Origin: an uncultured Pseudomonadota bacterium
Lineage (GTDB): Bacteria; Pseudomonadota; Alphaproteobacteria; Rs-D84
Direction: 5' to 3'
Length of the DNA stretch: 64,000 bases
NCBI GenBank assembly: GCA_902801125.1
Contig: CADCGT010000002.1
Span: 7,157-71,156, forward strand
Of the stretch, positions 13,245 through 58,096 are shown piece by piece (the first letter of the stretch is position 1; each line of letters starts with the position of its first letter). Below the pieces are notes generated by a model, which worked only from the letters and a program-made list of their open reading frames with translations, made no database searches and was not told where the DNA came from. Position numbers and translations under genes: made by a program.

Positions 13245-13268
13245 CCGCCCGTTCGGGCGGCTTTTAAT
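13245..13268. terminator. Bidirectional hairpin terminator between convergent genes
   Basis: CCGCCCG-ttc-GGGCGG followed by CTTTTAATT. Confidence 0.5.
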
Positions 13269-16387: not shown

Positions 16388-16476
16388 TTCCTTTGCCCCC
16401 CAAAAAATAGAACATATATGTTCTTGCAGTTTCTGACACTTTATACTAAAATTCATAAAATAAAGCAAGGATATAA

Positions 16477-19107
16477 ATGATAAAAAAAGATAAACTTTCA
16501 CCCGAACAGGAAATTGCCGCCGAACCAACACTTAATGTCTGGGTCCAGGCAAACGCCGGCACCGGAAAAACCAGTGTTTTAACCGAACGGTTGTTGCGTA
16601 TATTGTTTCGGGCCGATGAACCAATGGGTGGAATTTTATGTTTGACCTATACCAACGCGGCGGCGGGCGAAATGCGTAATCGTATTTTGGCGGCGTTGCG
16701 TCGTTGGGCAATGTCAAATGATAAAGATTTGTGCGAATTATTGCGCGGGGTGACAACAAATAAAAATCCAACGCCGGCGGATATATCGCATGCGCGCGAC
16801 ATATTTTTTAAATATATCGACACACCGGAAATATTAAAGATAAAAACTATACACGGTTTTTGTGAAGAAATTTTGCATCGTTTCCCGACCGAGGCCGGCC
16901 TTTCACCATCTTGGTCTTTGATATCCGATGCACCGCAACAGGTTTTGTTAAATGATGCGTTAAATGCGCTTGTAAATTCTCCGTCAAACGATGCGCGAAC
17001 GGTTGGGGCGTTTAACCATATTGTTGGCATAGTATCTGAATATAAAATCGATGATTTATTAAAAAATATTGGTCAACAATACAAGCACTTTTTTACGGTG
17101 AATAATTTTGATAACTATCGCGAATACTTTATTGATACGATTGAAAAAATTCTAAATATAAAAAATAAAAATTATACACAAAAAAACGATGAAAAATTGC
17201 GTTTCATCGTTGAAAGCGCAAAAAACGAAAAAAAGATCGGTAAAAAACTTGAAAACCTGATTCGCCTTACCGAACAATATATTAAAAACACAATAGATTT
17301 TGAAGAATACAAATCTGCGTATTTAACCACGGCCGGAACGATTATCCAGGGAGGTCTAAATTATGATTATTTAGATGCGGAAAAAGAACGTGTGTTCAAC
17401 GAAAATGTGTATCGCATAAATTATAAAATTTATACGGCGACAATTGCGTTGTTTGATTTGTCGGCGGCATTTGCAAAAAAATATATGGAATTGAAACAAA
17501 TTCATAATGTGTTGGATTTTGAAGATTTGATTTTATACACACACCGTTTGTTTTCAAACCCGGAAAATATGGGCTGGGTTTTATCCCAGATGGATTTGTC
17601 CTTGTCGCATATCTTGGTGGACGAGGCCCAAGATACCGGCCCATTGCAATGGGAACTGTTGCAAATGTTGTCTGGGGATTTCTTTGCCGAAGGCGATAGA
17701 ACGAATTTGCCGCGTTCGTTGTTCGTTGTGGGCGATACAAAACAATCAATCTATGGATTCCAAGGTGCCGACCCGAACGCGTTTGCGGCAAGTCGCGAAC
17801 AAATATCGGCCCAAATTAAAAACAACGCGCGCCAAATACGCGAAGTACCACTGACGCAAAGTTTCCGTTCGGTTGAACCGATATTGCAAACGGTCGATAT
17901 GTTTTTTGGAAACGAAAATGTTGCCGCGCGCACGGGCTTTGTAAACAATCCGCATAAATGTTTTCGTGTTGGTGATGTGGGCGCGGTTGAATTGCATGGA
18001 CTGTGCACACCGGGCGAAAGGCAAACGGAAATCGCCCGCAAAGAATACATTCGTGATATTGCCGATAAAATAGAAACATTATTGTTGGGCGGTAAATATG
18101 AACCGCACGACATTATGATTCTTGTACAAAATCGGAATCCGCTTGCGGTTCCGATGGCAAATGAATTAAAGCGTCGCGGCATAGATGTCGCGGGCAGTGA
18201 TCGCGTCATTTTGCCAAATTTCCCGGTGATTCGCGATTTAATGAACTTGTTGCGTTTTTGCATGGATAATGACGATGATTATTCTTTGGCGTGTGTGTTA
18301 AAAAGTCCGTTATTCGGATTAAATGACGATGCGTTATATAAAATATGCATGGCGCGAAATAATGAAACGGTGCGTCGCCGTCGTGAAAATCCGGAGGCAC
18401 CGCGCGCAACAATTCGTGAATTTGTTAAAAATATGTATCCAGAAATATATTCGTGCCTGGTCGATTTTGTGGCGCGTGCGCAAATCGATGGACCATACAG
18501 TTTCTTTACATACGTATTAAACACAAATAAAACGCGTGAAAAGTTTATTGCGGCGCTTGGCCCCCAGATAATAGATCCATTGGAAGAATTTATTACCATG
18601 TGTCTTGCGTATGAACGCACGCGTCCTGGGGGGCTTAGACATTTTATAAAGTGGTTTATTACCGGAAACAGTGAAATAAAACGCGATATGGATTCGGGGT
18701 CTGGGGTTCGTATTGTCACTGTCCATGGCAGTAAAGGTCTGCAATCGCCCGTTGTATTTTTAATAGACACAACATCGGTTCCAAAATCACACAATATATA
18801 TGATTTGCCCGATGCCAATATGCCGATATGGCTTTGGACGCCACACACCGCGGATGGCGTGACACCACAATTATTAAACATTCGTGATAAACAATTGTCC
18901 AAAGATATCGAAGAAAGTTTTCGTTTGTTGTATGTGGCGATGACGCGTGCGCGTGACGAATTGTATATTTATGGGTTTACACCAAACAAATCCGCCCCAG
19001 AAATATCGTGGCATTCAATGTTGTGGGAAACTTTATCGCGGGCGCCGGGTATAACGGTTTCAAATGATTTAATAAGGATTTCAAACGATGACGGCAATGT
19101 TAAATGA
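16477..19107 (+). CDS. addA: Double-strand break repair helicase AddA, N-terminal UvrD-like helicase portion
   Basis: LSPEQEIAAEPTLNVWVQANAGTGKTSVLTERLLRIL (AddA N-terminus with Walker A), UvrD motifs, C-terminal VHGSKGLQ.. / YVAMTRARDELYIY. Confidence 0.8.
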   Translation: MIKKDKLSPEQEIAAEPTLNVWVQANAGTGKTSVLTERLLRILFRADEPMGGILCLTYTNAAAGEMRNRILAALRRWAMSNDKDLCELLRGVTTNKNPTPADISHARDIFFKYIDTPEILKIKTIHGFCEEILHRFPTEAGLSPSWSLISDAPQQVLLNDALNALVNSPSNDARTVGAFNHIVGIVSEYKIDDLLKNIGQQYKHFFTVNNFDNYREYFIDTIEKILNIKNKNYTQKNDEKLRFIVESAKNEKKIGKKLENLIRLTEQYIKNTIDFEEYKSAYLTTAGTIIQGGLNYDYLDAEKERVFNENVYRINYKIYTATIALFDLSAAFAKKYMELKQIHNVLDFEDLILYTHRLFSNPENMGWVLSQMDLSLSHILVDEAQDTGPLQWELLQMLSGDFFAEGDRTNLPRSLFVVGDTKQSIYGFQGADPNAFAASREQISAQIKNNARQIREVPLTQSFRSVEPILQTVDMFFGNENVAARTGFVNNPHKCFRVGDVGAVELHGLCTPGERQTEIARKEYIRDIADKIETLLLGGKYEPHDIMILVQNRNPLAVPMANELKRRGIDVAGSDRVILPNFPVIRDLMNLLRFCMDNDDDYSLACVLKSPLFGLNDDALYKICMARNNETVRRRRENPEAPRATIREFVKNMYPEIYSCLVDFVARAQIDGPYSFFTYVLNTNKTREKFIAALGPQIIDPLEEFITMCLAYERTRPGGLRHFIKWFITGNSEIKRDMDSGSGVRIVTVHGSKGLQSPVVFLIDTTSVPKSHNIYDLPDANMPIWLWTPHTADGVTPQLLNIRDKQLSKDIEESFRLLYVAMTRARDELYIYGFTPNKSAPEISWHSMLWETLSRAPGITVSNDLIRISNDDGNVK

Positions 19108-36093: not shown

Positions 36094-37566
36094 ATGAAAC
36101 TATCAAAATACGGTTTTAATGTTGCATTGGTTTTATTATTGGTACCGGGAATCGCCCGTGCAGAAAATCCCGACCTTATGACGCTTATCGGCGCCAGCGG
36201 CGAGGCCGACACATATGCGGCACGTGACAACAATGGGGAGGATACGAACGACAACGCATCAACATACGGATTAAGTTCATCCGACCATAATTCATTTGCG
36301 GTTGATTACGGCAACAGCGGTATCGTACGTGGTCATGGCCGTTGCAGCACGCGTGCGGGCGATTCTGGGACGTGGAATAATGACACATACAATGTAATAT
36401 CCGGTAATTTTGTAGATAGCTTAACCGATGAAACGGGCCAAAGCGGTGCACAATATTGCTATTGCCAATTGGACAGTTATACGGCCTCTGGTGGTTCTGC
36501 CCAGGCTTTGTCTGGCCCGTGGGTGTTCCGCAGTGACGACGAGGACGCGGACACTTGCGCGGACGACTGTGCGCTCGACTGTGCGGATGCCCTGATGTTC
36601 GGCGGCGCGGACGGTCTCGCGTTCCGGGCTGCAATGTTTAATGCCTATGCGCCGGCGGGCGGGGCCAGTGGTGGCAGTGCGGTGACGACACAAACCTATG
36701 TTGATAATAAATTGGCGACAAAACAGGCGCGGATTACCACCACCGGCACAAATAAACTTATGACATACGGTGCATCCACGGGCGCGACCCCGGGTTCGCG
36801 TGATATTGTGACCGCGCTTGGCACATCCACCACCGCAACCACTGTGCCAACGGTTGGCCCAATCGTCACGGCCGTAAATAATAAACAAGACGCGGTCAAC
36901 GGCACAGCGGACTATGTTATGACCGGCACCGGCACGGCCGGCACACTCGGTGAAAAACCGGTCTACAGTGCCAGTGCACAATTGTCGACCGCCCTGGTAA
37001 CCGCCCAGACGATAAATACGGCGGCAATGGACGCGGCCAACAGTGAAATGATGTGTCATTCCTATGTTGCCAACGCATCTCAAACCCCGGAGAATTGCCT
37101 GCTGTGGGAAATAAAACAAAGTATTTCTAAACCGTTGCAATCGTATTGGCAAAATCCGTCGACACCATACACAAGTTCTTGTTATCGTAAGGCATATGGT
37201 AATTATACAGAAGGCGGTATAGCACGTAATGATCAGAATGGTAATTGTAGCAGTGCAACTGTATCGTATCTTGGGGCATTGAACAACAAAAGTGGTAAAT
37301 GGGGCACTGTTTTCCCATATGGTGATATAAGCGGTGTAAGTAAATGTGTTAATTATATTGCCAATCCTGGTATTGCGACAGATGAGCAAATTAATTCGCA
37401 GTCTACGGGCGGGGTTTGTTGGTGCAAGATGCAAAATCCGATAGTTTCAAAATGGGCGATCGGCATGAGTTATGGAAATCTTACCAATTGTAATAAGGTA
37501 TGTGCAGGGACGTGCGCCGCACTTCAACCATCGTATAGAGAAGTTATGTACAGCACAATAGAATAA
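36094..37566 (+). CDS. Secreted protein, 'KTVTT-YVD / CLLW' family paralog 3 with extra N- and C-terminal Cys-rich domains
   Basis: Signal peptide MKLSKYGFNVALVLLLVPGIARA. Internal VTTQTYVDNKLATKQARI...PENCLLWEIKQ domain alignable to paralogs 1 and 2. Confidence 0.7.
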   Translation: MKLSKYGFNVALVLLLVPGIARAENPDLMTLIGASGEADTYAARDNNGEDTNDNASTYGLSSSDHNSFAVDYGNSGIVRGHGRCSTRAGDSGTWNNDTYNVISGNFVDSLTDETGQSGAQYCYCQLDSYTASGGSAQALSGPWVFRSDDEDADTCADDCALDCADALMFGGADGLAFRAAMFNAYAPAGGASGGSAVTTQTYVDNKLATKQARITTTGTNKLMTYGASTGATPGSRDIVTALGTSTTATTVPTVGPIVTAVNNKQDAVNGTADYVMTGTGTAGTLGEKPVYSASAQLSTALVTAQTINTAAMDAANSEMMCHSYVANASQTPENCLLWEIKQSISKPLQSYWQNPSTPYTSSCYRKAYGNYTEGGIARNDQNGNCSSATVSYLGALNNKSGKWGTVFPYGDISGVSKCVNYIANPGIATDEQINSQSTGGVCWCKMQNPIVSKWAIGMSYGNLTNCNKVCAGTCAALQPSYREVMYSTIE

Positions 37567-45894: not shown

Positions 45895-46455
45895 ATGTCA
45901 AAGAACTTAACTCCTATGGAAAAATTTAACGCAATGGAAGAAAAACGCATATTTAACGAATATATTGTTGTGGATTACAACTGTCGCAATAAAGGCACTG
46001 TTACCGTGACATTGATTTCAACATATACAACCGCAGCCCCTAAACAAATTACATTAGATAATCATTGGGGTGCCCGCAAAAAAATGTTAGATGCAGACAG
46101 TTGTATATGGAACATTGGTTCTTTGGTCACTTTAACCAAAGACGGTAAAATCAAACCGGTTAAATATGATATGCGTAAATGCGACACTATGTTGGTCACC
46201 GGTGCATATAACACCTTTAACACATCGCGAATATTATCGTTGATGGGCAAAAAGTTTGGTCAGACAACACTGTGTATTTCCCCGGAACCAATACATATTT
46301 GGCATCAAAAATTCTATTCAACTGAACGGGGCGATATCGTATTGGTTCGCCCAACCAACCCACAATTGGAACCAGACAACGAATATCAAATCCTGCGTAA
46401 TTTCACAATGGAAGAAAAAATACGCAAGTTTTTTGAATCGCAACGCCAAAGATAA
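45895..46455 (+). CDS. Hypothetical protein (mini-island gene 1)
   Basis: Start at MSKNLTPMEKF with RBS AAAAAGGAAAAATATG. AT-rich, AGA codons, no recognisable motif. Confidence 0.45.
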   Translation: MSKNLTPMEKFNAMEEKRIFNEYIVVDYNCRNKGTVTVTLISTYTTAAPKQITLDNHWGARKKMLDADSCIWNIGSLVTLTKDGKIKPVKYDMRKCDTMLVTGAYNTFNTSRILSLMGKKFGQTTLCISPEPIHIWHQKFYSTERGDIVLVRPTNPQLEPDNEYQILRNFTMEEKIRKFFESQRQR

Positions 46456-46537
46456 TACCACGGTGCATTACAAGTGCCGGAATATGTGGGCGTGTTTGCC
46501 GAACGGCGAAAAAAAGAATAAAATAAAAAGATTAAAA

Positions 46538-47422
46538 ATGTTAAAGAATAGGTGGGTTGTTACCAAGAAAAATAATGTTGCAAATTGTCCCGGTATATTT
46601 AATTACACTATTGTTCCTGTGGATGGATGGGGCGACAAGGATGATTATGAATTATATGATAAAGACATTTTATCAAAACGAAATCTTGATATTGGCACAT
46701 ATACCGATGATGACCTGAACCCGGTATATGAACACTATAAATACCTGAACACCGATATCGCCACCGTAGAATCAACCACAGTCCAGGTGTATAAACCTGG
46801 CATGACCCGGTTAAATGTTTTTGGGGACCGTTTTGGTGAATTTTCCTTTTTGGTTGATGACCAAGGCATACCGTTCAGAATCACCCGTGGCGATAACATC
46901 TTGGTTCAGCGCAAATATGACGTGGCGGACTTTGTGTGGCCCCAAAAACCCGATGATGATGACGATGAATACAGCGACCCATTATTGCAGGATATTATGG
47001 GGACACGCCGTGAAATGCAAAGATGCCAAGAACCAGAAGAATTGGTTGGGCCTTACTTTCACATACTGTATAATGTGACCACAAAACGCAAAGCAAAAAG
47101 TTTTCCAAAAACCAAAAAAACGCACTCAAAAAGTAATTTCGGCGATTGTGACCGTGTGGTCGTATTGGGTGTTTCACCCACATGTCTTGAATACGATATG
47201 CAAAAGCACCTGATTATACACAGTGACAAATTCGGGTTAATAAGTTGTTTGGCCGATGAATATCAATCCGAATTTCATGCCTATACCCAAGATAAACTTT
47301 TAATTCAGCAATACTATGATTACAACGCGGGCGAAATTGCATACAGGATACTGGCCAACAAAACCATCGATGACATGCGCAGCTTGATGTTAAGACGGAA
47401 TATTCAATTCCGTCATCGGTAA
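46538..47422 (+). CDS. Hypothetical protein with poly-Asp tract (mini-island gene 2)
   Basis: Start at MLKNRWVV with RBS AAAAAGATTAAAAATG. KPDDDDDEYSD acidic tract. Confidence 0.45.
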   Translation: MLKNRWVVTKKNNVANCPGIFNYTIVPVDGWGDKDDYELYDKDILSKRNLDIGTYTDDDLNPVYEHYKYLNTDIATVESTTVQVYKPGMTRLNVFGDRFGEFSFLVDDQGIPFRITRGDNILVQRKYDVADFVWPQKPDDDDDEYSDPLLQDIMGTRREMQRCQEPEELVGPYFHILYNVTTKRKAKSFPKTKKTHSKSNFGDCDRVVVLGVSPTCLEYDMQKHLIIHSDKFGLISCLADEYQSEFHAYTQDKLLIQQYYDYNAGEIAYRILANKTIDDMRSLMLRRNIQFRHR

Positions 47423-47426
47423 CAAA

Positions 47427-48899
47427 CTAAATCAAACTTTTACCGGTCATATCGGCGGGCTTTGGCATGCCCAACAATTTTAATATTGTTGGGGCCACAT
47501 CGGCCAATCCACCGTTTTTAATCTTTTTTACCCGTGGTTCGCCAACCATAATCGCACGCACTTTGTTGTTTGTGTGCGCCGTCCATGGTGCATTTGCTTT
47601 ATCGTCCCACATTTTTTCTGCGTTTCCGTGGTCCGCGATAATAAGCATTTTTCCGCCAAGTTTCAACACCGCCGGAACAATTTCCGCCAATTGCGCATCA
47701 AGGCATTCCATGGCACGAATTGCCGCAGATTCATTTCCGGTATGTCCAACCATATCGCCATTGGCAAAGTTCATCAACACCACATCAAACCTGTCAAGGC
47801 GTGGCAACAATGCACGCGTAATTTCCGGCGCAGACATTTCCGGTTTCAAATCAAATGTTGCGACATTCGGCGAATCAATCAACACCTTTTCTTCGCCGGG
47901 AAAATCGATCGTGCGTTCCGCATCCATAAAGTATGTGACATGATTATACTTTTCGGTTTCAGCGATACGCAACTGACGCAATCCCGCCGCCGCAATAACA
48001 TCACCCAAGGTATTTTTAACCGGAATATCAGAAAGCAGTGCAGGGCATTTTTCATTTAATCCTTCGCCATATTGTGAAAAGCATAACATATGCGCACCCG
48101 TATCCAACATGGCACGCACAATCTGGCGCGCGCGGTCACTGCGATAATTTCCAAATACAAATCCATCACGCGCGGTAATTGGCGTGGCATTTATAATTGT
48201 CGGTTTGAAAAATTCATCGGTCACGCCCGCGGCATAGGATTGTTTAATCGCGTCTTCGATGGTATCCGCATGCGCGTCGGCCGTCGCATTTGCAATTGCA
48301 TTAAACGCCAATTCTGTGCGGTCCATATTCTTGTTGCGGTCCATCGTCCAATACCGCCCAGAAAGGGTTCCAAAGAACGCGCGTCCGTCCGCAAAATACG
48401 GTGCCAACATGCGTTTAATTGTTCGAACATATTTTAATGCAGATTTCGGTGGCGTGTCGCGCCCATCGCCAATAAAATGAATACAAACGCGCAATCCCGC
48501 GTCAAGGATGTATTTTGCAATCTTCATTTCGTCGCGCACATCGGAATGCACACGCCCATCGGACATAAGGCCCGCAAAATGCACAATTCCGCCATCGCGC
48601 CGCACATCGGCAATAAAATTATTTAACGGTTTATTTTTCGTCCAATCTTCACGCGCGAACCGCAACAGGTATTGCATAACTACGCGCCCGGCACCGATAC
48701 AGATATGTCCAACCTCGGAATTACCCATCAAATTACCCGGCAACCCGACGGCGGTTCCACTTGCGCGCAACAAAGAATTCGGATATTTCTTAACCAAGCC
48801 ATTAAAAAACGGCATTTTTGCCATTTCCACCGCATTATGTTCACGCACATCACTGACCCCAACACCATCAAGGATACATAAAACAACTGGTTTTGTCAT
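47427..48899 (-). CDS. gpmI: 2,3-bisphosphoglycerate-independent phosphoglycerate mutase
   Basis: MTKPVVLCILDGVGV...; metal-binding and Ser-phosphorylation motifs of iPGM. Confidence 0.95.
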   Translation of the reverse strand: MTKPVVLCILDGVGVSDVREHNAVEMAKMPFFNGLVKKYPNSLLRASGTAVGLPGNLMGNSEVGHICIGAGRVVMQYLLRFAREDWTKNKPLNNFIADVRRDGGIVHFAGLMSDGRVHSDVRDEMKIAKYILDAGLRVCIHFIGDGRDTPPKSALKYVRTIKRMLAPYFADGRAFFGTLSGRYWTMDRNKNMDRTELAFNAIANATADAHADTIEDAIKQSYAAGVTDEFFKPTIINATPITARDGFVFGNYRSDRARQIVRAMLDTGAHMLCFSQYGEGLNEKCPALLSDIPVKNTLGDVIAAAGLRQLRIAETEKYNHVTYFMDAERTIDFPGEEKVLIDSPNVATFDLKPEMSAPEITRALLPRLDRFDVVLMNFANGDMVGHTGNESAAIRAMECLDAQLAEIVPAVLKLGGKMLIIADHGNAEKMWDDKANAPWTAHTNNKVRAIMVGEPRVKKIKNGGLADVAPTILKLLGMPKPADMTGKSLI

Positions 48900-49031
48900 A
48901 ATTTCCCCCATAATTAGAATTTATTGTCCATAAATCATATCACAACGCTTTTTTGATTGCAAAACAAAAAGAAAAATAGTATGTATAAATAAAACTAGGA
49001 CATGTGTCCTTGTGGATTAAAGGGGAAAATT

Positions 49032-49460
49032 ATGGCAGGCAAGTCATATATACCAACTGCTGTGGACCAACATATCGGCAAACGCATGCAACTGCGTCGG
49101 ACTATGCTTGGGCTATCATTAAAAGACTTGGCGAAAATTTGTGGTGTCACATTTCAACAGATTCAAAAATATGAAACGGCGGACAATCGTATATCTGCGT
49201 CGCGTCTGTTTGAAATTGGTATGGCGATGCAAACGCCGGTTTCGTTTTTCTTTAACGGGTTGCCGGGGAATATGCCGGACGAAACGCGCGCGACGCGTTC
49301 CATGCACCTGCATCAACCGGATTTGAACGAAAATTTGGACGACCCAATGTTGCGCACAGAAAGCCTTAAATTGGTCCGTCTTTATTGGCGCCTTGCCAAT
49401 GATGAACAGCGTGCGGCCATCATGAATATGTTAAAGACAATGGTTGGCGCGCCGGAATAG
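49032..49460 (+). CDS. XRE-family (Cro/C1-type) helix-turn-helix transcriptional regulator
   Basis: IGKRMQLRRTMLGLSLKDLAKICGVTFQQIQKYETADNRISASRLFEI. RBS AAAGGGGAAAATTATG. Confidence 0.7.
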   Translation: MAGKSYIPTAVDQHIGKRMQLRRTMLGLSLKDLAKICGVTFQQIQKYETADNRISASRLFEIGMAMQTPVSFFFNGLPGNMPDETRATRSMHLHQPDLNENLDDPMLRTESLKLVRLYWRLANDEQRAAIMNMLKTMVGAPE

Positions 49461-49481
49461 GGCGCCCAAGGTAAAAATTCA

Positions 49482-49510
49482 ACACCGCCAAACGGCGGTG
49501 TATTTTTGTT
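49482..49510. terminator. Rho-independent terminator (convergent junction)
   Basis: ACACCGCC-aaac-GGCGGTGT followed by ATTTTTGTTT. Confidence 0.7.
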
Positions 49511-49559
49511 TATTGCACATAAAACACCGACCAGCCGGCCGATGTATTATTTGGGTCAC

Positions 49560-51632
49560 CTATTGATCAGCCTTTGGTGCCGCACAAGTCGAACAAGCCT
49601 CCATAGCGGTTACACGACTTTGCAACGCCGTGTAATTTGCGGACAATGTACTATAATTATTCTGCAACGTGGTATAACTATTCCGCAAATCGGTAAGTTG
49701 CGCCTGCAATCCCTGTGTACAATTACCACCATCAGAAACACTGGTGCCACTGCATGTGCCATTAACAGTTGTTTCAACGGTACCTAAACGCCCCAGAACA
49801 CTGTTCGCACCGGCCGTACCTATACCAACCGTAGTGTTCAAAGTGTTAATCTGTGACGTATGACCACTGGCTGTGGTTTGTGCGCTTTGTGCTGCGCTTA
49901 ACGCACTGGATGCGTCGTTGGCCGCATTGTTCGCGGTGGTCTCGACGGTTGTCAATGCCGACTTGGTCGCATAGGTGCTTGATGCGTTGTTTTGTGTTAA
50001 ATACGTACTGCTGGCATCAGTCTGTTTTAGATACGTGTTGGTTGCATCGGTTTTGCTAAGGTACGTACTTTGCGCGTCTGTTTTATTCAACTTGTCATCC
50101 AAACCGCTTAATGCGCTGGCTGCATCTTGCTTTGCCTGGGTTGCATCGGTTGATGCCGTATTCGCGGTACTTACCGCATTTGCCGCACTTGTCTTGGCAT
50201 CTGCAACATCTTTGACCAGGCCACCGGACGCATTGCCAATGGTACTGGTGTTTGTTGTCACCTGTTTAACCAGACCGCCATTCGAATCACCAACCGTTGT
50301 TTCCAACGCAGTAATTTTGCCATCTGCGGTATTCAACGCCGTTTGTGTTGCGTACGTTGATGACGCATCCGCACTGGTAAGGTATCCGGTTAACGCACCC
50401 GAACCCGCAACCGCGCTTGCCAAATCTGTCTTCACAGAATTGTCCTTTAACGCGGTTCCCAAATTCGCCGTTTGCAGATACGAACTTAATGTCGTATTCA
50501 AACTATCGGTCGTTACCTTGTTAGATGTTGCCGACGTGATTTTATTGGTCACTTGAGCTGACGTATCATAATCCGACAACGCCGTGCTTATCGCACTGTT
50601 TACATCGGACGATGTCACCTTGTTTGCGACCGCATTATCGGTATAAGTTTCCGCCGCAGTTTGCGCCGCATCAATTGCCGTAGAAATTGCACTGGCATTT
50701 TGTGTGGTTATCGGACGACAGATATTATATACCGCACTGGTATCTTGACGTGCACATTCCATATATACTCCGTCATTACCACTGCATATATCCTTGTTTG
50801 ATGAAACAATTGGAACACACGTATCTTCATAATCTGTGCTGTTTATGGTATCGTTGCACATTGTTTGCGCCAATCTTACATACCCCGCCTTCGTCGCAGT
50901 CGGCGCCGTATATGTTTTTGTATACGTTTTCACCGCGGTCGCCGGATTTGCAACATTATCGCAAATTCCGACACCGTTTGTACCCGGCGCACCATCGTTA
51001 CCATCCTGACCGTCCGGTATATCCACCGTACTGGTGCTGCCGCAACCACTAATGGTCACAACTGTCTTTTTATTCGTGGCATCATGTGCACTGCTGAATG
51101 TCGGTTCGCAATTTGTACCATTGGTACCCGGCGCACCGTCACATACCAGTTTATTAACTGGTGTGCCGGCGGTACAGGCGTCATTTACCAAAGAATACGG
51201 TGTCTTGGTAATAGTATAGCAACCCTGGGCATTCTTATCGCTAATATCAACCTTGTCCGCACAACCCGGCGCACCGTCTTGACCCGCGGCACCGTCTGTA
51301 CCGTCTTGAACGGTTTCCGTCCAAACCGTGGTGTTATTACAATCCGTTGCCGTCAGTGTCGTTGTGCCCCCAACTTTACTCTTGGTAATCGTCGTTGCAC
51401 AACCTGGCGCGCCATCTTGACCCGCGGCACCGGTTGCGCCAACCAGCGATGCCAAGAAATCGGCCTCGCTTCCGGTATTACCGGCATCCTGCCAAATCTG
51501 ATATGCAGATTTACCGGTTGCACCAACAGGAACCTTGATAGTTCCCATGGTTGTCTGTGCGGAAACATTATCGGTCACACCGAAACCCAACAACACAGCA
51601 CCACACAAACACAACAAACTTACTTTCTTCAT
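49560..51632 (-). CDS. Large secreted fibre protein with collagen-like GxY triplets, Cys-paired beta modules and Ala/Thr/Ser-rich coiled-coil repeats
   Basis: Signal peptide MKKVSLLCLCGAVLLGFGVTDNVSA. Repeated GQDGAPGC / DGAPGTNG. Module shared with the next gene (VANPATAVKTYTKTYTA...YEDTCVPIV). STY-rich heptads. Confidence 0.6.
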   Translation of the reverse strand: MKKVSLLCLCGAVLLGFGVTDNVSAQTTMGTIKVPVGATGKSAYQIWQDAGNTGSEADFLASLVGATGAAGQDGAPGCATTITKSKVGGTTTLTATDCNNTTVWTETVQDGTDGAAGQDGAPGCADKVDISDKNAQGCYTITKTPYSLVNDACTAGTPVNKLVCDGAPGTNGTNCEPTFSSAHDATNKKTVVTISGCGSTSTVDIPDGQDGNDGAPGTNGVGICDNVANPATAVKTYTKTYTAPTATKAGYVRLAQTMCNDTINSTDYEDTCVPIVSSNKDICSGNDGVYMECARQDTSAVYNICRPITTQNASAISTAIDAAQTAAETYTDNAVANKVTSSDVNSAISTALSDYDTSAQVTNKITSATSNKVTTDSLNTTLSSYLQTANLGTALKDNSVKTDLASAVAGSGALTGYLTSADASSTYATQTALNTADGKITALETTVGDSNGGLVKQVTTNTSTIGNASGGLVKDVADAKTSAANAVSTANTASTDATQAKQDAASALSGLDDKLNKTDAQSTYLSKTDATNTYLKQTDASSTYLTQNNASSTYATKSALTTVETTANNAANDASSALSAAQSAQTTASGHTSQINTLNTTVGIGTAGANSVLGRLGTVETTVNGTCSGTSVSDGGNCTQGLQAQLTDLRNSYTTLQNNYSTLSANYTALQSRVTAMEACSTCAAPKADQ

Positions 51633-51662
51633 ATCAACATCTCCATAAATTATCAATTGTCT

Positions 51663-52901
51663 TTAATCGTTGCAAATAATATCATAGGCTACCGCAGTTT
51701 CGCTTGATTGTCCTGGATTAGGCGCCACACTGAACGAATTACATCCTTTATCACCTTTTTCACCCTTGATGTCCGCCAATGCAACAACATTTTTGGTTGT
51801 GTCTCCATCGGTCAAAACAATATATCCCGTTTGGGTATTTGTGCTAAAAGTTGCATTTTTAGATATTTTGCTATCCGCTGTTGATTGCGCATTCGCCGCC
51901 GCAGTATTTGCCTGGGATGCCAACGAATATGTCGCCGCCAAACCAGTTGTATTATTATCAACCTTGTTCGCGGTTGTGGTTGCGGTTGATTGCGCATTGT
52001 CCGCGGCTGATTGTGCCGCGCCAATGGCCGCGCCTATTGACTGTGCGTTTTCACTGGTCACAGTCTTGCAGATATTATACGTGTTGCCGCCATTTTGTGG
52101 GGTGCATTCCATATATGTTCCATTACTGCAAATATTTTGTGCGGTTCGCGTTGGAACAATTGGCACACAGGTATCTTCATATATTGTGTTATTGGTATTG
52201 TTGTCGCACATGGTTTGCTCCAATGTCACATAACCCGCAGCCGTTGTTGTGTGTGCAGTATATGTCTTGGTATATGTTTTAACCGCCGTTGCCGCATTTG
52301 CAACCCCGTCACAGATTCCCGCGCCATTGTTACCGTCGGCAATTTCAAAACTTTGGTTTGTCGAACCGCATACATATTGTACTGTTGTTTTGCGTGCAGT
52401 CGAATTATAGGCACTGGTAAACGACGGTGTGCACGGTTCTGCGCCATCGGCAATTTCAAAACTTTCATCTGTGTTGCCACAGGTATATCTTACCGTCGTC
52501 TTGCGCGTGGCATCGTTATGTGATGAGGTAAATGCCGGAATACATGCATCCTGACCCGCGGTTCCTTGTGGTCCCTGTGGACCGACGGGTCCCTGTTCAC
52601 CTTGTTCACCCTTGAACGGAACACCACCACCCGGACACGTTGGAAACGCGGTTCCATTATAAATGTAAAGCAATCCTTCATCACGGTTGTAATATGCGTC
52701 ACCCTGGATCATGCCAGTCAATTGCCCAAGTTCAGTACAATTATCAACCTCTCCCTTGTAAGTAATGCCTACACCCGGTTCACCTTGGGGACCGCGCGGA
52801 ACGGTGATAGTTCCGATAACTGTCGATGCCGCATACGCACCCGCGCCAATCAACATGGCAACCGCCGCACAGATTCCACCAAAAATTTTTGCTTGTTTCA
52901 T
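51663..52901 (-). CDS. Secreted collagen-like repeat protein, paralog of 49560-51632
   Basis: Signal peptide MKQAKIFGGICAAVAMLIGAGAYA; GEQGEQGPVGPQGPQGTAGQD; duplicated CxPxFTSxxNxTxRKTTVxYxCG modules; shared VANAATAVKTYTKTYTA block. Confidence 0.6.
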   Translation of the reverse strand: MKQAKIFGGICAAVAMLIGAGAYAASTVIGTITVPRGPQGEPGVGITYKGEVDNCTELGQLTGMIQGDAYYNRDEGLLYIYNGTAFPTCPGGGVPFKGEQGEQGPVGPQGPQGTAGQDACIPAFTSSHNDATRKTTVRYTCGNTDESFEIADGAEPCTPSFTSAYNSTARKTTVQYVCGSTNQSFEIADGNNGAGICDGVANAATAVKTYTKTYTAHTTTAAGYVTLEQTMCDNNTNNTIYEDTCVPIVPTRTAQNICSNGTYMECTPQNGGNTYNICKTVTSENAQSIGAAIGAAQSAADNAQSTATTTANKVDNNTTGLAATYSLASQANTAAANAQSTADSKISKNATFSTNTQTGYIVLTDGDTTKNVVALADIKGEKGDKGCNSFSVAPNPGQSSETAVAYDIICND

Positions 52902-52946
52902 TTTTTCCTTCCTTTTTTTTTATTTTAATTGTTTGTTTATTGTTTT

Positions 52947-54464
52947 TTACTTTGCTGCCCCATCTTCACACACCAGGTTGTATGTTGCTCCGCCGGCGTC
53001 TGTTGATACAGGCTCCAAACTTATACCACCCGGGCATGGGTTCACACCACGTTTAACTGTATAGCGTCCAAGAACCTTACTGCTATCTTCTTTACAGGTT
53101 ATTACAACATCTGTATCGCCGTTGGCATTTTCGGTGCCGGTATATTGTGGCTCGCAGGCATCCGCACCATCATTTCCATTATTTCCGGCCGGCCCAGTAA
53201 TATCATTTACCGAAACAATGTCTTTTACAACACCATTTTCTGGATCGGTATAGACAATTTTTCCATCAGAAATACTAAATGTGCCATCGTTGCTTAACAC
53301 CTCACTCTTTTTCGCATATTCGCCAAGGGCAGATTTATCCGCCTTGTCGGTTTGCAGGCCACTGATGCTTGTCTCATTTGTGCCGACACGAGCGCCAAGC
53401 GCTGTTAAATCAGATTCTTTTGCAAAACCTGCACCATCAACCGCCTGTGTAATCAATTCGGAAACACGATTTTCATCAAACCCAGATGACGCATTTTCAA
53501 TTTTCGCATCAACGTCCGCCTTGCTGTACGAAAAATCTTTACCGGCATAATATTCGTCCGCTTGTTCCCTGGTCAGTTTTCCATCCGCCGCAGATTGTGC
53601 GCTTTGTGCCGCCAACAATGCTTCATCGGCCTTGGAACCGGCATTTTCCGCCGCGGATTGTGCCGTGGTTATTTTGCCGTCTGTGGTTGCTTTATCTGTA
53701 TCATAGGTTTCACGTGTCACATAATTTCCGGACAAAAATTCTTTGGACGGTAAATCTTTTTCATCAATCTTTTCATTTACAACGCGTTCCAACTGGGCCG
53801 CATCAACCGAACCGTCCTCGCCTTTCTCACCCCTGTCACCTTTGTCGCCCTTAAGGTCGGACAAAAGTGCCACATTTTTGGTGACACCGTTGCCATCGGT
53901 CATAATAATATGCGTATCATTCTTGGAAAAACTGACATTCTTGTCCAAGGCATAATCTTTCATTGCGTTCTCGTCAACCAATTTCTTTTCATCGGCACGT
54001 GTATCAAATTTAGATTCAAATTCGTCCTTGGCCAATTTCGCGCTGTCCGCATCGTCAACATACGGAACCGTAGCGTAATTTTTGTTTGCCAATTCAGAAT
54101 CCAAAATATCGCGAACCGCGCCTTCGTCAACGCCGGCATTGCGTAACGCATCTACATCCGCGGATAATTCACTTAATTTATCCTGTAAATCGGCAACCGC
54201 CGCCGCAGACGCGCCCGATGGCAATTTCGGTTTTGCCCCAAGGTTATTCATGCCCGCCAATGTCGCCATACGCGATGGTTCGGATGAAACCGTTGGCGTC
54301 GCCACCGACGACGATGACACAGACCGCGACCCGGTCACCCCCGGTTGAACACGCAACGACCCGGCACGCCCAGGAACGGCCGCCACGGCACTTCCCGCCG
54401 CAAACACAGCCCCCATACAGCTTGCCATCGCTACTACACTAACAAACTTTTTCTTACCCAACAT
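52947..54464 (-). CDS. Secreted collagen-like / coiled-coil repeat protein
   Basis: Signal peptide MLGKKKFVSVVAMASCMGAVFAAGSAVAA. KGDKGDRGEKGEDG triplets. TDGNGVTKNVALLSDLKGDKGD block shared with 51663 gene. Cys-containing C-terminal domain. Confidence 0.6.
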   Translation of the reverse strand: MLGKKKFVSVVAMASCMGAVFAAGSAVAAVPGRAGSLRVQPGVTGSRSVSSSSVATPTVSSEPSRMATLAGMNNLGAKPKLPSGASAAAVADLQDKLSELSADVDALRNAGVDEGAVRDILDSELANKNYATVPYVDDADSAKLAKDEFESKFDTRADEKKLVDENAMKDYALDKNVSFSKNDTHIIMTDGNGVTKNVALLSDLKGDKGDRGEKGEDGSVDAAQLERVVNEKIDEKDLPSKEFLSGNYVTRETYDTDKATTDGKITTAQSAAENAGSKADEALLAAQSAQSAADGKLTREQADEYYAGKDFSYSKADVDAKIENASSGFDENRVSELITQAVDGAGFAKESDLTALGARVGTNETSISGLQTDKADKSALGEYAKKSEVLSNDGTFSISDGKIVYTDPENGVVKDIVSVNDITGPAGNNGNDGADACEPQYTGTENANGDTDVVITCKEDSSKVLGRYTVKRGVNPCPGGISLEPVSTDAGGATYNLVCEDGAAK

Positions 54465-54486
54465 TTTACACCTTTCCTTTTTGTTT

Positions 54487-56913
54487 TTAATTACCAGATG
54501 AAGATATATAACACACCCCATCCAAATAATATCCTGTTCCTAACTCGGCACACTTGTGTTCGTACCATGAATCATAGAATATACACATACGATTCGCTTC
54601 GTCCCATCTTGTTACCGGGTTTTCCGTCGTTCCCCATATATCTTGATAATATTCGCATGCCAATTTCGCGCTGCTTCTGAAACAGTATCCCCACCCGGAC
54701 CCGTCTGCACGATTCGCCGTTGTTCCATCATTGCCATCACCCGTCGGTGGCGTATTCCCGCCAAACGCCGTATCATAAAACGCCAACAGCAATTCAGAAC
54801 CATCCGTATTCCGCGTATCGATATGTGACCACATTCCGCCCAATTCTGTACACACATCGGCCAATGCGCCACTCATTGCATCATCTACATCACGAATCAG
54901 CCAATCCACACGCGATCTAACGGTTTCTGGCAAACTGATATAATTTCCCGCACCACCATTGATCGGGTCGGCGCAATTACTGGCCGCGAAATTCTGTATA
55001 TTTGTCGTCAATTCGTTTTTCGACAACCGGCGACAGTTATATGGATACGAATATGTTGAATCCGGCGCGCACAGGTCTTGAACATATTCATCCAATGCCG
55101 CGATACATTTTTCCGCCACACTTAACGAATCAACCGCCGACACATAATTCAACAAAGATGTCAAACCACAATTTGCCCCGCTGTTGGTAAGGTGACCGCG
55201 CGAATCAAAACTGCATTGCGTCGTTTGTTCCCGGTTACCCCATAATGTTGCACACGCCACAACGCGTTCGTGGCACATATCGCCCGCCACATAACGTGCC
55301 AACGCCGCCGCGGTTGTCGCCGTATTTTTATCCACATTCTTTAATGCATTTGTTTGCGTGTCATAGCATTCAGAAATTACATTCACACACGAAGATTTAA
55401 CTTCTTCTATTTTTTCTGTTTGCGCCTGGGCAATTTCAATAATGGCGTTGCGTTTGAATTCCGTCCAAACGAAATCCGCGATGTCACGGCATGTATCCAA
55501 TGCGCCGGCCGCATATTTACGATATGTTTCCAAGAAATTAGAATAGGTGGGGTTTTGTCCAATTATGTCGGTCACAACATCCCCATTCGTCGTCACGCCA
55601 TCCAACGCAATTGTTTGTTCCAATTGGAACAGGCGCGGGCTGTAAATTGCCTCTCCGGTGGCACCATTTATATATGCACCCGTCGGGTCTAAACACCGTT
55701 TATAGTTTGCGCCGCACGCGGTATCCGCCAATATCGCATTACGCACATTGGCGATACATTCATTGACATCGGCCGAATTATGCGCACGATATTCTTCCAG
55801 GCGCGCCTCGCGCAAATACTTTTCCGCCATACGCACCGCAGATGCCACCGTTTCGCGTTTTTTATTCAGTGTCTTTTCGTATGTGTTGCAATCCTGGGTA
55901 ATTAAAATATTATAAGAACTGCGCGCCATGGTTGCGACAGAATTACTGCTGCACATTTCTGCACTAAGGTTTGCGCACTGGCGTTGCGCCGCATTGAACA
56001 GCGCACTGCCTTCTAAACTGGATATATCCGATGTTGTCGAAGAAAATATAGACGACACATCATTTGACCAGATATCATCTAAATCGGTTGAAAAATTCAA
56101 ATCAAGTATACCAATGGAATTTCCGGTTCCCGAATATGTTGTGTTGGATTTTCCAGACAATAAATCACTTATTGCGTCCAATGTCTTGGCGGCGGCACTG
56201 GTGTCGCGTTTAATTGCCAATTCACCAACAGTTGCGGAATACATTGCTTCAACCTCGGCCGCGGTTTTATCGACCGCGTTCAGGTTGTTATCTTGAAAAT
56301 CTTGCAACATAATCATTGCCTGGTCCAAAGAATTTTCAATTTCGCGGAATTTTACAAATCGGTCACTGCAAAAACAGCGGCGATATGTATCATTTGCGTT
56401 TGCGCACATTTGGTCCATACATGTTGAATACGATTCACGACACGCGGCATAACCGGAACCAATCTTGCTTACATCATTAAAGACCGCGGTTGCACGGGCG
56501 GCCGATGCACTGCGCGCGATTCCCGCCATTCCCGATACGGTCTTTTTACCGGTGCGGGCATTTGTCGGCATGGACGCTGTTGCGGTCCTTGCGCTGCGTG
56601 CGCGGGCGACCGGCAACGCACTGCGTGTCGCAGACCCCGCACGCAGGTTCGGCGTGTCCGCCACACGAACCGCCGTTATAGTTGTCGCGCTGCGTCCGCC
56701 ATTTGAATTTACACGGGTTGGACCAATCGCGCGAATACGCGTTGGGTTTGCCACCGCGCGACGCGATGAAACATCCCCAGATAACGATTGTCGCGCCGAA
56801 ACATCCGAATCGGTTGCACGCGGATTCACCGGCATGGCCGCAAAGGAATGCGCACACACAGATGCCGCAAATACCGCAAAAAACCAAGAAAAATTCTTTG
56901 TTTTTGATACCAA
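54487..56913 (-). CDS. Large secreted Cys-rich protein (808 aa), first gene of the fibre-protein cluster
   Basis: Probable TTG start with RBS AAGGGAG. Signal peptide VSKTKNFSWFFAVFAASVCAHSFAA. RSA/RAT low-complexity stretch then ~650 aa with >30 Cys. Confidence 0.5.
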   Translation of the reverse strand: MVSKTKNFSWFFAVFAASVCAHSFAAMPVNPRATDSDVSARQSLSGDVSSRRAVANPTRIRAIGPTRVNSNGGRSATTITAVRVADTPNLRAGSATRSALPVARARSARTATASMPTNARTGKKTVSGMAGIARSASAARATAVFNDVSKIGSGYAACRESYSTCMDQMCANANDTYRRCFCSDRFVKFREIENSLDQAMIMLQDFQDNNLNAVDKTAAEVEAMYSATVGELAIKRDTSAAAKTLDAISDLLSGKSNTTYSGTGNSIGILDLNFSTDLDDIWSNDVSSIFSSTTSDISSLEGSALFNAAQRQCANLSAEMCSSNSVATMARSSYNILITQDCNTYEKTLNKKRETVASAVRMAEKYLREARLEEYRAHNSADVNECIANVRNAILADTACGANYKRCLDPTGAYINGATGEAIYSPRLFQLEQTIALDGVTTNGDVVTDIIGQNPTYSNFLETYRKYAAGALDTCRDIADFVWTEFKRNAIIEIAQAQTEKIEEVKSSCVNVISECYDTQTNALKNVDKNTATTAAALARYVAGDMCHERVVACATLWGNREQTTQCSFDSRGHLTNSGANCGLTSLLNYVSAVDSLSVAEKCIAALDEYVQDLCAPDSTYSYPYNCRRLSKNELTTNIQNFAASNCADPINGGAGNYISLPETVRSRVDWLIRDVDDAMSGALADVCTELGGMWSHIDTRNTDGSELLLAFYDTAFGGNTPPTGDGNDGTTANRADGSGWGYCFRSSAKLACEYYQDIWGTTENPVTRWDEANRMCIFYDSWYEHKCAELGTGYYLDGVCYISSSGN

Positions 56914-56983
56914 TTCGACTCCCTTCGATTAAGATTATAGTAAAAATTCAAAAAATGAATCAACCATAAAATCAATCAATTTT

Positions 56984-57562
56984 TTATTCAATACAACAAT
57001 TCACCGCGTTTTTAACCCAATCTCCCAATTTCCGCACTGTTGATTTGGATTCAGACATTTGTGCCTTGACATCCTTTTTGTCTTTCTTGGCGTCCATCCC
57101 AATCGCAGATGTGTATAATTCTGGTTCCATTTTTTGCACGCCGGCCAAATCGATCATCTTCATATTCAGTCCCCAGAACAAAGAATACAATTCATACGCG
57201 CGTTCAAACATCGCATAGGCATCTTTCTTGTTGCCCGCACCCAACGCCTTGGTTCCAACCTCGTACAAACGCATAGACGCCGCCAGTAAATGTTTTGATA
57301 TACACCAAACCTCGCCGCCCTGGGCCGCGTTTTTATCGACGATGCGCGCCATCAATTCTTTGCGCATTTCGCGCACAACATTTATCAAATCATAAAATCC
57401 AGGCTTTTTGGTCTTTGCGCCACTGAAAAAGAAATGTTCTTCCAACGACACAAGGTTCATCAACGCAATAGACAAATCTTGGTCCGAAGATAAATCCAAC
57501 GGATTTACTTTTTTTGAATCATCTATTTTTTGAACCATTTCTTCCAAAGACATTTTTTTCAT
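56984..57562 (-). CDS. Hypothetical protein
   Basis: ORF on the operon strand. No recognisable motif. Start ambiguous (MERRKVMKKM). Confidence 0.4.
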   Translation of the reverse strand: MKKMSLEEMVQKIDDSKKVNPLDLSSDQDLSIALMNLVSLEEHFFFSGAKTKKPGFYDLINVVREMRKELMARIVDKNAAQGGEVWCISKHLLAASMRLYEVGTKALGAGNKKDAYAMFERAYELYSLFWGLNMKMIDLAGVQKMEPELYTSAIGMDAKKDKKDVKAQMSESKSTVRKLGDWVKNAVNCCIE

Positions 57563-57586
57563 AACTTTTCTCCTTTCCAATATCTG

Positions 57587-58096
57587 TTATTTCGTAATAA
57601 ACCAAAACACCAGTGTCGCAACCAACAAGAAACTTATTGGAACAACAACTTTCTGAAACGCAAACTGTGCATGCCCACCGTTTCTGCGCTTGATTGAAAC
57701 ATACCAACGCGCCCCGGCCCAAAAACACACCGTTCCAACAATGATTCCCAACAAGAATTTATCGATTCCCCACAATGTGTGCATGCCATAATGAACATCT
57801 GGCAACAAATAAACCATGCCCAACAACGCGTAATAACATACGAACGGAACGACCAATTGCCAAAAAGCACTTGTCACGCCACGTTTTTTTAACCAACCCG
57901 CCGTCCACAAAAACAGCGATAATGTAAGTCCCCCGGCCCATATTCCGGTTATAACATCATCAACCCCCAAAAGGCGCGCACCTTCTAACCCCGCACCAAC
58001 GGCCACCGTACAAACCGGGCAAACCGCGTTCGCCACCGTCGCACACAAGGCGCCACACAACGCCGCGCCACCGATTTTCCAAATATTTTTCGTCAT
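57587..58096 (-). CDS. Integral membrane protein with N-terminal CPVC pair
   Basis: Four or more predicted TM helices; CGALCATVANAVCPVCTVAVGAG. Confidence 0.45.
   Translation of the reverse strand: MTKNIWKIGGAALCGALCATVANAVCPVCTVAVGAGLEGARLLGVDDVITGIWAGGLTLSLFLWTAGWLKKRGVTSAFWQLVVPFVCYYALLGMVYLLPDVHYGMHTLWGIDKFLLGIIVGTVCFWAGARWYVSIKRRNGGHAQFAFQKVVVPISFLLVATLVFWFITK

Follow-up and report, generated by a model that had tools for sequence, protein, structure and literature searches.

Organization of the locus

Candidatus Enterousia (order Rs-D84, Alphaproteobacteria) comprises uncultured bacteria of the animal gut with genomes of ~0.75–1.0 Mb, which are without most biosynthetic and respiratory pathways and are proposed to depend on partner cells (PMC12306168). 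We analyzed a 64,000-nt stretch of contig CADCGT010000002.1 from this order (hereafter the window), in which four consecutive minus-strand genes, here termed A, B, C and D, encode proteins of 808, 505, 412 and 690 aa. A first-pass annotation of the sequence had described a paralogous cluster of four secreted fibre genes. The reading frames are as described, and paralogy holds for B, C and D; gene A is an unrelated core gene with an all-helical predicted structure. The locus thus consists of a conserved Cys-rich core gene and a three-gene variable cassette, B-C-D, that falls outside all named collagen-like families.

Gene A (54487–56913) starts with TTG, six bases after the ribosome-binding site (RBS) AAGGGAG. 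The open frame of gene B (52947–54464) extends to 54521, and its ATG at 54464 is preceded by the RBS GGAAAGG. Genes C (51663–52901) and D (49560–51632) follow on the same strand, and the intergenic gaps A–B, B–C and C–D measure 22, 45 and 30 nt. The best promoter-like site of the region, a consensus match only, is the sigma-70-like sequence TTGATT-18-TATAAT upstream of A (56934–56963, minus strand; 10 of 12 consensus matches). Good terminator-like hairpins are found only after D (49482–49545; hairpins at 49545–49524 and 49501–49482), and nothing comparable was found between A and D. Because a promoter match precedes A, the gaps are short and good hairpins occur only after D, the four genes are probably transcribed as one unit that would start upstream of A and terminate after D. 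The hairpin at 49482–49501 is bidirectional and common to D and to a convergent gene on the plus strand (49002–49460), whose annotation as an XRE-family gene is borne out by an HTH_3 profile match.

Modular architecture of B, C and D

The N-termini of all four proteins resemble type-I Sec signal peptides, as had been proposed, by a heuristic check for a K/R n-region, a hydrophobic core and an A-x-A-type site (12-aa core with a Kyte–Doolittle mean of 2.1–2.75). A lipoprotein signal was considered; homologues do not conserve the Cys residues that fall within the signal-peptide regions, and type-I cleavage was therefore assumed. The collagen-type Gly-X-Y runs reported for three genes occur in B, C and D, where they span 3–7 triplets. 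The longest runs, of 5, 7 and 5 triplets respectively, are matched in only 3, 0 and 5 of 5000 shuffled sequences, and alleles at other loci reach 11–13 triplets. Runs of 3–7 triplets are too short to form a stable triple helix alone. A regularity beyond the observations of the first-pass annotation is that a Cys residue stands almost directly after 6 of the 8 runs in the window and after 23 of the 40 runs in homologous modules, against a background of 0.146. Conserved Cys residues are abundant throughout B–D.

C and D are collinear paralogues (E = 4e-51 over ~390 aa), and B aligns to each of them over shorter blocks (~1e-9), with a T-D-G..T-K-N-V..L.D.K-G.K-G-D block held by both B and C. After the signal peptide, C and D share a conserved strand, [TV]-[IL]-G-x-[IF]-x-V, and both finish in a short C-terminal element with a terminal Cys. 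B is without this N-terminal strand and without the Cys-rich domain of C and D. It opens instead with a conserved module delineated by alignment (~aa 29–125; 54090–54380, minus strand; R-A-G-S-L-R ... R-M-A-T-L ... K-P-K-L-P-S), a candidate anchoring part; beyond it lie a charged region that shows no heptads, two short Gly-X-Y runs and, at the C-terminal end, Cys-pair modules.

In C, the VIGxIxVP strand and a first Gly-X-Y run lead into a small beta domain (residues 46–97; 52611–52766, minus strand) that is common to collagen-containing tail-collar proteins of phages. The 7-triplet run follows, and then two tandem ~35-aa Cys-pair modules (residues 119–153 and 156–190; 52332–52547, minus strand), whose duplication, noted in the first-pass annotation, is visible as a DNA repeat (52333–52394 and 52444–52505). 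The conserved Cys-rich beta domain comes next (~85 aa, residues 197–280; 52062–52313, minus strand; VAN..TAVKTYTKTYTA...YEDTCVPIV...YNIC), with invariant C197, C232, C245, C258, C266 and C278. A helical stalk then leads to the small beta module that closes the chain. An AlphaFold2 (AF2) monomer model of C resembles beads on a string: the domains at 46–97 and 197–280 are predicted with a per-residue confidence (pLDDT) of ~80 and ~78, two three-stranded modules occupy 120–188, and a single 63-residue helix spans 283–345. Confidence is low in the Gly-X-Y runs, as would be expected when a single chain is modelled.

D begins with the N-terminal strand and a module, SAYQIWQDAGNTGSEADFLASL, that together with its Gly-X-Y run (residues 37–85; 51378–51524, minus strand) is common to phage tail and virion proteins. 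Four Gly-X-Y runs alternate with Cys modules ahead of a Cys-rich beta domain (residues 224–305; 50718–50963, minus strand) that is paralogous to that of C and recognizable as a 183-nt repeat of 73% identity. A stalk of ~315 aa follows (residues 306–619; 49776–50717, minus strand), rich in Ala, Ser and Thr, with 10-residue T-Y-L-x-K/Q-T-D repeats and a strain-variable length, and the protein ends in a heptad coiled coil with terminal Cys pairs and a final C-x-x-C (residues 620–690; 49563–49775, minus strand). The heptad stalks proposed in the first-pass annotation are upheld in part. Periodicity is significant in D 620–690 (period 3.45; 0 of 500 shuffles) and in C 283–345, and weak in D 306–620, where a 3.5-residue period is reached by 16 of 500 shuffles.

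Strain-level variation of the cassette

The comparative check suggested with the first-pass annotation, for copy-number and repeat polymorphism, revealed variation of an extreme degree. Loci of relatives are given L-numbers below, L006 being that of strain GCA_045224415.1. Nucleotide identity between the window and L006 is 96–97% in the flanks and collapses over a hypervariable core (49526–53508). High identity is maintained across dnaE, rsmH, p169, p198 and A and into B as far as codon ~318, and resumes at the XRE gene and gpmI. The encoded proteins accordingly range from 97% amino-acid identity for A to 68% for B, 56% for C and 42% for D; the first ~318 aa of B, including the N-terminal module, are ~96% identical and the remainder diverges. 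Synonymous divergence (dS) is 0.58–1.85 in the core versus 0.08–0.20 in the flanks.

Nei–Gojobori estimates for three strain comparisons (L006, L087 and L088) place the flanking genes at a dS of 0.00–0.20 and a ratio of nonsynonymous to synonymous divergence (dN/dS) of 0.01–0.15. For B, C and D, seven of the nine comparisons give a dS of 0.23–1.85 with a dN/dS of 0.2–0.8, always below 1, and the other two (B versus L088 and D versus L087) are as close as the flanks. The raised dS points to divergent alleles imported by recombination and not solely to local mutation, while the combination of dN/dS below 1 and intact frames indicates that B, C and D are functional yet less constrained than their flanks. 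Positive selection in situ as the sole source of divergence is ruled out, since dS as well as dN is elevated and their ratio stays below 1.

Length polymorphism is evident in B and D in the comparison with L087 and L088 (~98% identity). B of L087 is shorter by 94 aa, the D stalk of these loci is longer by 52–65 aa than that of the window (indels at 50392–50491 and 50491–50648), and in L088 the final ~113 aa of D, which include the C-terminal coiled coil, are replaced. The alignment to L089 and L090 (~95% identical at the nucleotide level) skips from window position 54463 to 49554, such that exactly B, C and D are missing from these loci. This defines a variable cassette of 4.9 kb (49555–54462). 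The junction keeps the ribosome-binding sequence of B (ggaaaggtgtaaaat) and continues into the normal post-D sequence, indicating that the cassette was lost from these strains. Several metagenome contigs break in or close to the slot; those of L089 and L090, for example, end ~380 nt beyond the A homologue. Such breaks fit a fragmentation of assemblies where strains vary, and surveys of short contigs would then under-count cassette diversity.

We also looked for dedicated diversification systems. A diversity-generating retroelement (DGR) target was rejected, as there is no near-identical template/variable repeat pair in 49400–57000 and no reverse transcriptase among the neighbours. The repeat search of the same interval revealed no silent cassettes, invertase or DGR elements that would point to cassette switching, and no tandem DNA repeats of note. 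No extra copies of the locus genes were found elsewhere in the window.

A fixed slot downstream of gene A

The gene order dnaE-rsmH-p169-p198-A-[slot]-XRE(convergent)-gpmI is found in all relatives examined, with p198 and p169 (56984–58096, minus strand) as conserved syntenic partners upstream of A and the XRE gene as the conserved right flank. The XRE gene is kept as a neighbour where the cassette is missing, and a role as its dedicated regulator is not evident. In the clade whose A protein is at least 63% identical to that of the window, the slot is usually occupied by a three-gene B/C/D-like module of differing sizes, for example 274/410/559, 270/354/393 or 508/402/697 aa, and such modules of varied sizes occupy the same slot in nine other species. 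All eight complete B/C/D-homologous slots (the window, L004–L006, L008 and L011–L013) hold three genes. By BLAST, the slot proteins of different species share segments in a mosaic fashion among B-, C- and D-type genes, and the N-terminal module of B also opens the first slot gene in 10 other loci, giant proteins included.

Elsewhere in Enterousia the slot is either empty (56–280 nt in some species) or filled by other genes. A single unrelated secreted protein of ~380–430 aa with 20–25 Cys occupies it in many of the more distant species, and in a few cases (L020, L025, L027 and L039) it contains giants of 1000–1560 aa with 37–73 Cys. Because unrelated secreted proteins with 20–73 Cys occupy it in other species, the slot is a general hotspot for Cys-rich exported proteins. 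The single proteins of ~380–430 aa carry an N-terminal W-G motif (L030, L031, L033, L034, L038, L042, L073 and others; e.g. L031 10389–11531) and have no BLAST relationship to A, B, C or D.

Gene A is a conserved core protein

Gene A was described in the first-pass annotation as very Cys-rich with a TTG start, and both points stand: it encodes 29 Cys residues, nearly all of them invariant across 42 homologues. It is found in every Candidatus Enterousia genome examined. The protein has no Gly-X-Y runs, and BLAST reveals no similarity or paralogy to B–D or to the slot proteins of other species. In the AF2 model (pLDDT 59.8) a disordered N-terminal ~125 aa rich in Arg, Ala, Ser and Thr precedes long helices that make up an all-helical body. 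These features, together with its retention whether or not B-C-D is present, set A apart from the fibre family.

Gene A has more than 970 full-length homologues (46–96% identity), none of which carries a Pfam domain; the conserved Cys pattern and the rsmH-p169-p198-A synteny characterize the family. A scan of species representatives places relatives in 259 genomes, of which those with informative labels are Candidatus Enterousia or unclassified rumen and gut Alphaproteobacteria, and an exhaustive profile search groups the family into 795 clusters at 50% identity, all unannotated. Family scans (Pfam, NCBIfam) and PDB searches with the sequence and an alignment profile gave no relative, and none of six distant, longer family members scanned has a Pfam domain above threshold. 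Gene A is a lineage-wide conserved core protein with an export-type N-terminus and is not a collagen-like fibre; the mature protein is probably exported and disulfide-rich. Contigs in two genome records labelled Bacteroides fragilis (L037, CAVGNU010000005.1) and Muribaculaceae (L052, CAZJGX010000017.1) carry A homologues of 53% and 47% identity, respectively. In L037 the XRE gene and gpmI lie directly downstream of the A homologue, and the L052 contig stops before them; both contigs are probably mis-binned or mislabelled.

Comparison with known fibrous and variable systems

Pfam, NCBIfam and PHROGs scans of A–D, p169 and p198 returned no family above threshold. B and C have no Pfam or NCBIfam match even at E ≤ 0.1, and D has sub-threshold matches only (Alanine_zipper/Ala_zip_lipo, E ~0.004; STALD; Collagen). 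PDB sequence and profile searches with A, D and the alignments of A and C yielded nothing meaningful.

The first-pass annotation had likened the locus to BclA/Scl-type surface fibres. BclA of Bacillus, Scl1/Scl2 of Streptococcus and Lcl are likewise exported Gly-X-Y proteins with non-collagen flanking domains, strain-variable repeat number or length and a presumed fibre or adhesin role, and Lcl of Legionella demonstrates that a Gram-negative bacterium can use a collagen-like protein. The runs of B–D differ, however, in being 3–7 triplets long, several per chain, and mostly terminated by a Cys. Membership of either named type does not hold up. The C1q/TNF-like C-terminal head of BclA (~130 aa), for which a structural check had been suggested, is absent: C ends in a ~60-aa beta module and D in a coiled coil, and no C1q-like head was found by Pfam, PDB sequence or profile search or as a significant PDB fold match. 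No LP.[TSA]G (LPXTG-type) motif occurs in A–D, the host is an alphaproteobacterium and not a Gram-positive bacterium, and the best Pfam Collagen match stays below threshold.

The Cys-pair modules are reminiscent of the collagen-flanked surface repeat (CFSR, PF19079) proteins of Gram-positive cocci, which also place ~35-aa beta modules between Gly-X-Y runs. In BLASTP the modules align with CFSR repeats in protein P0426, with the pairwise pattern P-x-[FI]-[ST]...T-[IV]...S-F-x-[IV]-x-[DN]-G. The Enterousia modules hold an invariant Cys pair that CFSR repeats are without, and hmmscan gives no match at E ≤ 0.1. The pairwise resemblance is suggestive of CFSR homology, which the profile comparison does not confirm (hhalign, probability 21.5% over 10 columns).

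The stalk of D also recalls trimeric autotransporter adhesins. Trimeric alpha/beta coiled-coil fibres carry a beta-layer motif, [aliphatic]-A-T-K-[polar]-[DE] (Hartmann et al. 2016, PMC4786415). The Ala/Ser/Thr-rich heptads are similarly broken by Y-[LA]-[ST]-[KQ]-x-[DN], as in the T-Y-L-x-K/Q-T-D repeats of D, a beta-layer-like pattern that is a resemblance of sequence only (PMC4786415). Assignment to the trimeric autotransporters was rejected: there is no YadA C-terminal beta-barrel and no head, neck or stalk Pfam domain, and the C-termini are short and polar.

The other parallel drawn in the first-pass annotation, to phage tail fibres, is correct for two short modules and fails for the locus as a whole. 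Residues 37–85 of D match tail or virion proteins from the Pseudomonas phages LUZ7 and D6 at 59–68% identity, and residues 33–97 of C are 37% identical to P0417, which carries a Phage Tail Collar domain (PF07484) as well as collagen repeats. The same two modules account for weak matches of PHROG tail-fibre families to C (residues 31–118) and D. The likeness to tail fibres with collagen-like segments (PHROGs 3904, 819 and 1806; LUZ7) lies in two elements, the small beta domain between Gly-X-Y runs and the SAYQIW..GNTG.EADFL.SL module, and extends to the mosaic, hypervariable, beads-on-string build. Outside the two modules, C and D have no similarity among 50,697 phage records, C gives no tblastn match to these records at all, and ~85–90% of each of the proteins is without a phage homologue. 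Virion fibres assemble in the cytoplasm, whereas B–D carry Sec-type N-termini (by the heuristic check) and sit in a fixed core-genome slot. As the first-pass annotation had observed, phage structural and secretion genes are absent within ~10 kb of the locus; phage structural, lysis and integrase genes were likewise found neither within that distance nor among 10 further window open reading frames (ORFs) scanned. We therefore rejected B–D as the fibres of a prophage, both on context, with housekeeping neighbours and a slot syntenic across species, and on the mode of assembly.

In its genetics, the locus most resembles variable surface-antigen loci such as O-antigen or capsule clusters and pilin or adhesin cassettes. 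It has in common with them a fixed chromosomal position bounded by conserved flanks, abrupt breaks in identity, divergent alleles of raised dS and presence/absence polymorphism. It differs in that its cargo is three genes for fibrous proteins and not glycan-synthesis or pilin genes, and in that no silent cassettes, invertase or DGR were detected at the window locus.

Proposed function of the B-C-D cassette

We favour, with guarded confidence and at slightly better than even chances, a model in which B-C-D is a strain-variable cassette of exported fibrous proteins with Cys-locked collagen-like joints and, in C and D, a coiled-coil stalk, with display at the cell surface as the probable outcome. 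The first-pass annotation had raised the possibility of a surface-fibre or adhesin locus particular to this lineage, and the restriction of the locus to the lineage and its strong polymorphism agree with that suggestion. Each chain would be exported by Sec. Chains would then associate, presumably as trimers, through their short Gly-X-Y segments and, for C and D, also through alpha-helical stalks. Since the runs are too short to be stable alone and a Cys follows most of them, we propose that each Gly-X-Y segment would be locked by the following Cys and by the adjacent small Cys-paired beta modules, giving a beaded fibre. Candidates for a cell-proximal anchor are the N-terminal module in B and, in C and D, the VIGxIxVP strand, which would leave the divergent remainder exposed to bind partner or host ligands, to be targeted by phages or antibodies, or both.

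On this model, variation arises by homologous recombination through the conserved flanks, that is A and the 5′ third of B on one side and the XRE gene and gpmI on the other, and further by module shuffling, change of repeat number and loss of the whole cassette. The pressure behind it may be diversifying or frequency-dependent, and partner or host ligands, phages and host immunity are its possible sources.

Several observations weigh against this model. The signal peptides of A–D were called by heuristics and not by a trained predictor. A Sec signal delivers a protein only to the periplasm of a diderm cell, so surface display of B–D is a step that we infer, and neither Pfam and NCBIfam scans nor a motif check of A–D found an outer-membrane translocator, anchor motif or beta-barrel. 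The collagen-like runs are no longer than 3–7 triplets, and the match of D to Pfam Collagen (PF01391) scores 13.0 bits (E 0.09) against a cut-off of 27.2. Heptad periodicity is absent from B in the shuffle test. The AF2 models of A and C are monomers with a pLDDT of ~60 and a predicted template-modelling score (pTM) of 0.27–0.36, and trimer formation lies outside their reach. Compared with PDB folds, the C model has no match below E 0.009 (template-modelling score ≤0.14); against BFVD its top matches are tail fibres, with marginal scores.

A bolder version of the model is doubtful as a whole. In it, A and the slot would form a surface-protein expression site of an obligately partner-dependent bacterium, with A, perhaps together with p169 and p198, as a conserved disulfide-rich platform and the cassette as exchangeable ligand-binding fibres that set partner or host attachment. 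The cargo would differ by strain and species, with B-C-D in the window and, in other species, the single proteins of 20–25 Cys or the Cys-rich giants of 1000–1560 aa in their place. The Cys-capped Gly-X-Y runs would then be covalently locked mini-collagen joints of an undescribed kind.

The main rival, to which we assign a low probability, and the others lower still, is that B–D, with A, build a disulfide-cross-linked lattice in the periplasm or envelope, in principle like the Cys-rich envelope proteins of Chlamydia. Such a lattice would need only the Sec signals that are present and would account for the missing outer-membrane export or anchoring device, and the great abundance of conserved Cys in A and B–D, the unrelated Cys-rich proteins in the slot of other Enterousia species and further secreted Cys-rich ORFs in the genome all fit it. 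A housekeeping lattice is not expected to be dispensable, however, and the cassette is absent from ~95%-identical strains and from many species. An identity of 42% between strains whose flanks are 96–97% identical would also be unexpected for a lattice and is typical of exposed, selected surfaces, and modules held in common with phage receptor-binding fibres fit an outward-facing role.

As a variant of the favoured surface-fibre model, B, C and D could be the three chains of one heterotrimeric fibre, as in C1q and the heterotrimeric collagens. The constant number of three genes in the 8/8 complete homologous slots, the collinearity of C and D over ~390 aa and the block common to B and C speak for this arrangement. 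The three chains differ in length (505, 412 and 690 aa) and in module order, which would put their Gly-X-Y segments mostly out of register; gene lengths also change independently between strains, and B is without two of the elements found in C and D, namely the N-terminal strand and the Cys-rich domain. We consider the variant quite improbable.

More improbable again is that B–D are released soluble proteins, either bacteriocin-like or host-interacting effectors with fibre-type receptor-binding modules. Signal peptides without a recognizable anchor would suit release, and antagonism loci, too, typically differ in their alleles from strain to strain, but Pfam, NCBIfam and PHROGs scans found no toxin, enzymatic or immunity domain in B–D or adjoining them, and conserved N-terminal modules with variable distal parts fit anchored fibres better. 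The bacteriocin-like form of this proposal is further weakened because bacteriocin loci are not known to consist of three fibrous paralogues that vary together.

The least probable account, a domesticated or remnant tail-fibre module of a phage, tailocin or gene-transfer agent standing apart from its particle genes, would explain the phage-like segments of C and D, the PHROG and BFVD matches and the mosaic hypervariability typical of tail-fibre genes, but is opposed by the Sec-type signal peptides on proteins whose virion counterparts assemble in the cytoplasm, by the lack of phage structural, lysis and integrase genes in the regions scanned, by the fixed chromosomal slot behind a core gene in many species and by the lack of similarity beyond the two short modules.

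Variable collagen-like surface fibres are already known as a general phenomenon, and the present locus extends that theme and overturns nothing. Its setting gives it interest: Candidatus Enterousia is common in animal and human guts, has a genome below ~1 Mb and is thought to live off partner cells (PMC12306168). A hypervariable cassette for exported fibres is a candidate for strain-specific attachment or for a phage-receptor function and could serve as a strain-typing marker in metagenomes. Both the A family, with its 795 clusters, and the B-C-D module set are without characterized relatives. If the proposed locking occurs, a Gly-X-Y run with an immediate Cys may be a natural way to stabilize very short triple helices, which would be of interest for protein design.

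Neighbouring genes and other variable segments

The remainder of the window is ordinary chromosome, with genes for a P-type ATPase, rpoD, uvrD, cysS, xseA, gdh, dnaK, gpmI, rsmH and dnaE; dnaE, rsmH, gpmI and dnaK, together with genes for a deaminase, L25 and PFK, are among the neighbours of the locus. In every Enterousia locus examined, p169 and p198 sit between rsmH and A, a position where ftsL and ftsI usually follow rsmH. Both are under strong purifying selection (dN/dS 0.01–0.05) and have no Pfam, NCBIfam or PHROG relative; a PDB search with p169 gave chance matches only. The p169 product is a membrane protein of the multi-pass type, the first of its hydrophobic segments containing a CPVC motif, and p198 (192–198 aa) is predicted to be soluble and ends in CCIE. 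At a guess, p169 might be a thiol-oxidoreductase that serves the Cys-rich exported proteins encoded next to it.

Exported proteins rich in Cys seem to be a recurrent feature of the genome. Two ORFs of the window, at 13264–14349 (minus strand, 361 aa) and 36094–37566 (plus strand, 490 aa), have signal-peptide-like N-termini and ~3% Cys, the latter without a Pfam match. A further ORF of 690 aa (14459–16531, minus strand) has only a sub-threshold ATG17-like match. A giant protein of L006 (18952–22094; called at 3057 aa, running off the locus and without a Pfam match) lies just after dnaK, and the window has no counterpart to it at the corresponding place. A second strain-variable segment lies at 45900–47439, where identity to L006 is lost: the window, L087 and L088 carry a gene of ~294 aa (46535–47422, plus strand) without a Pfam match and two smaller genes, and L006 has a different gene of 178 aa.

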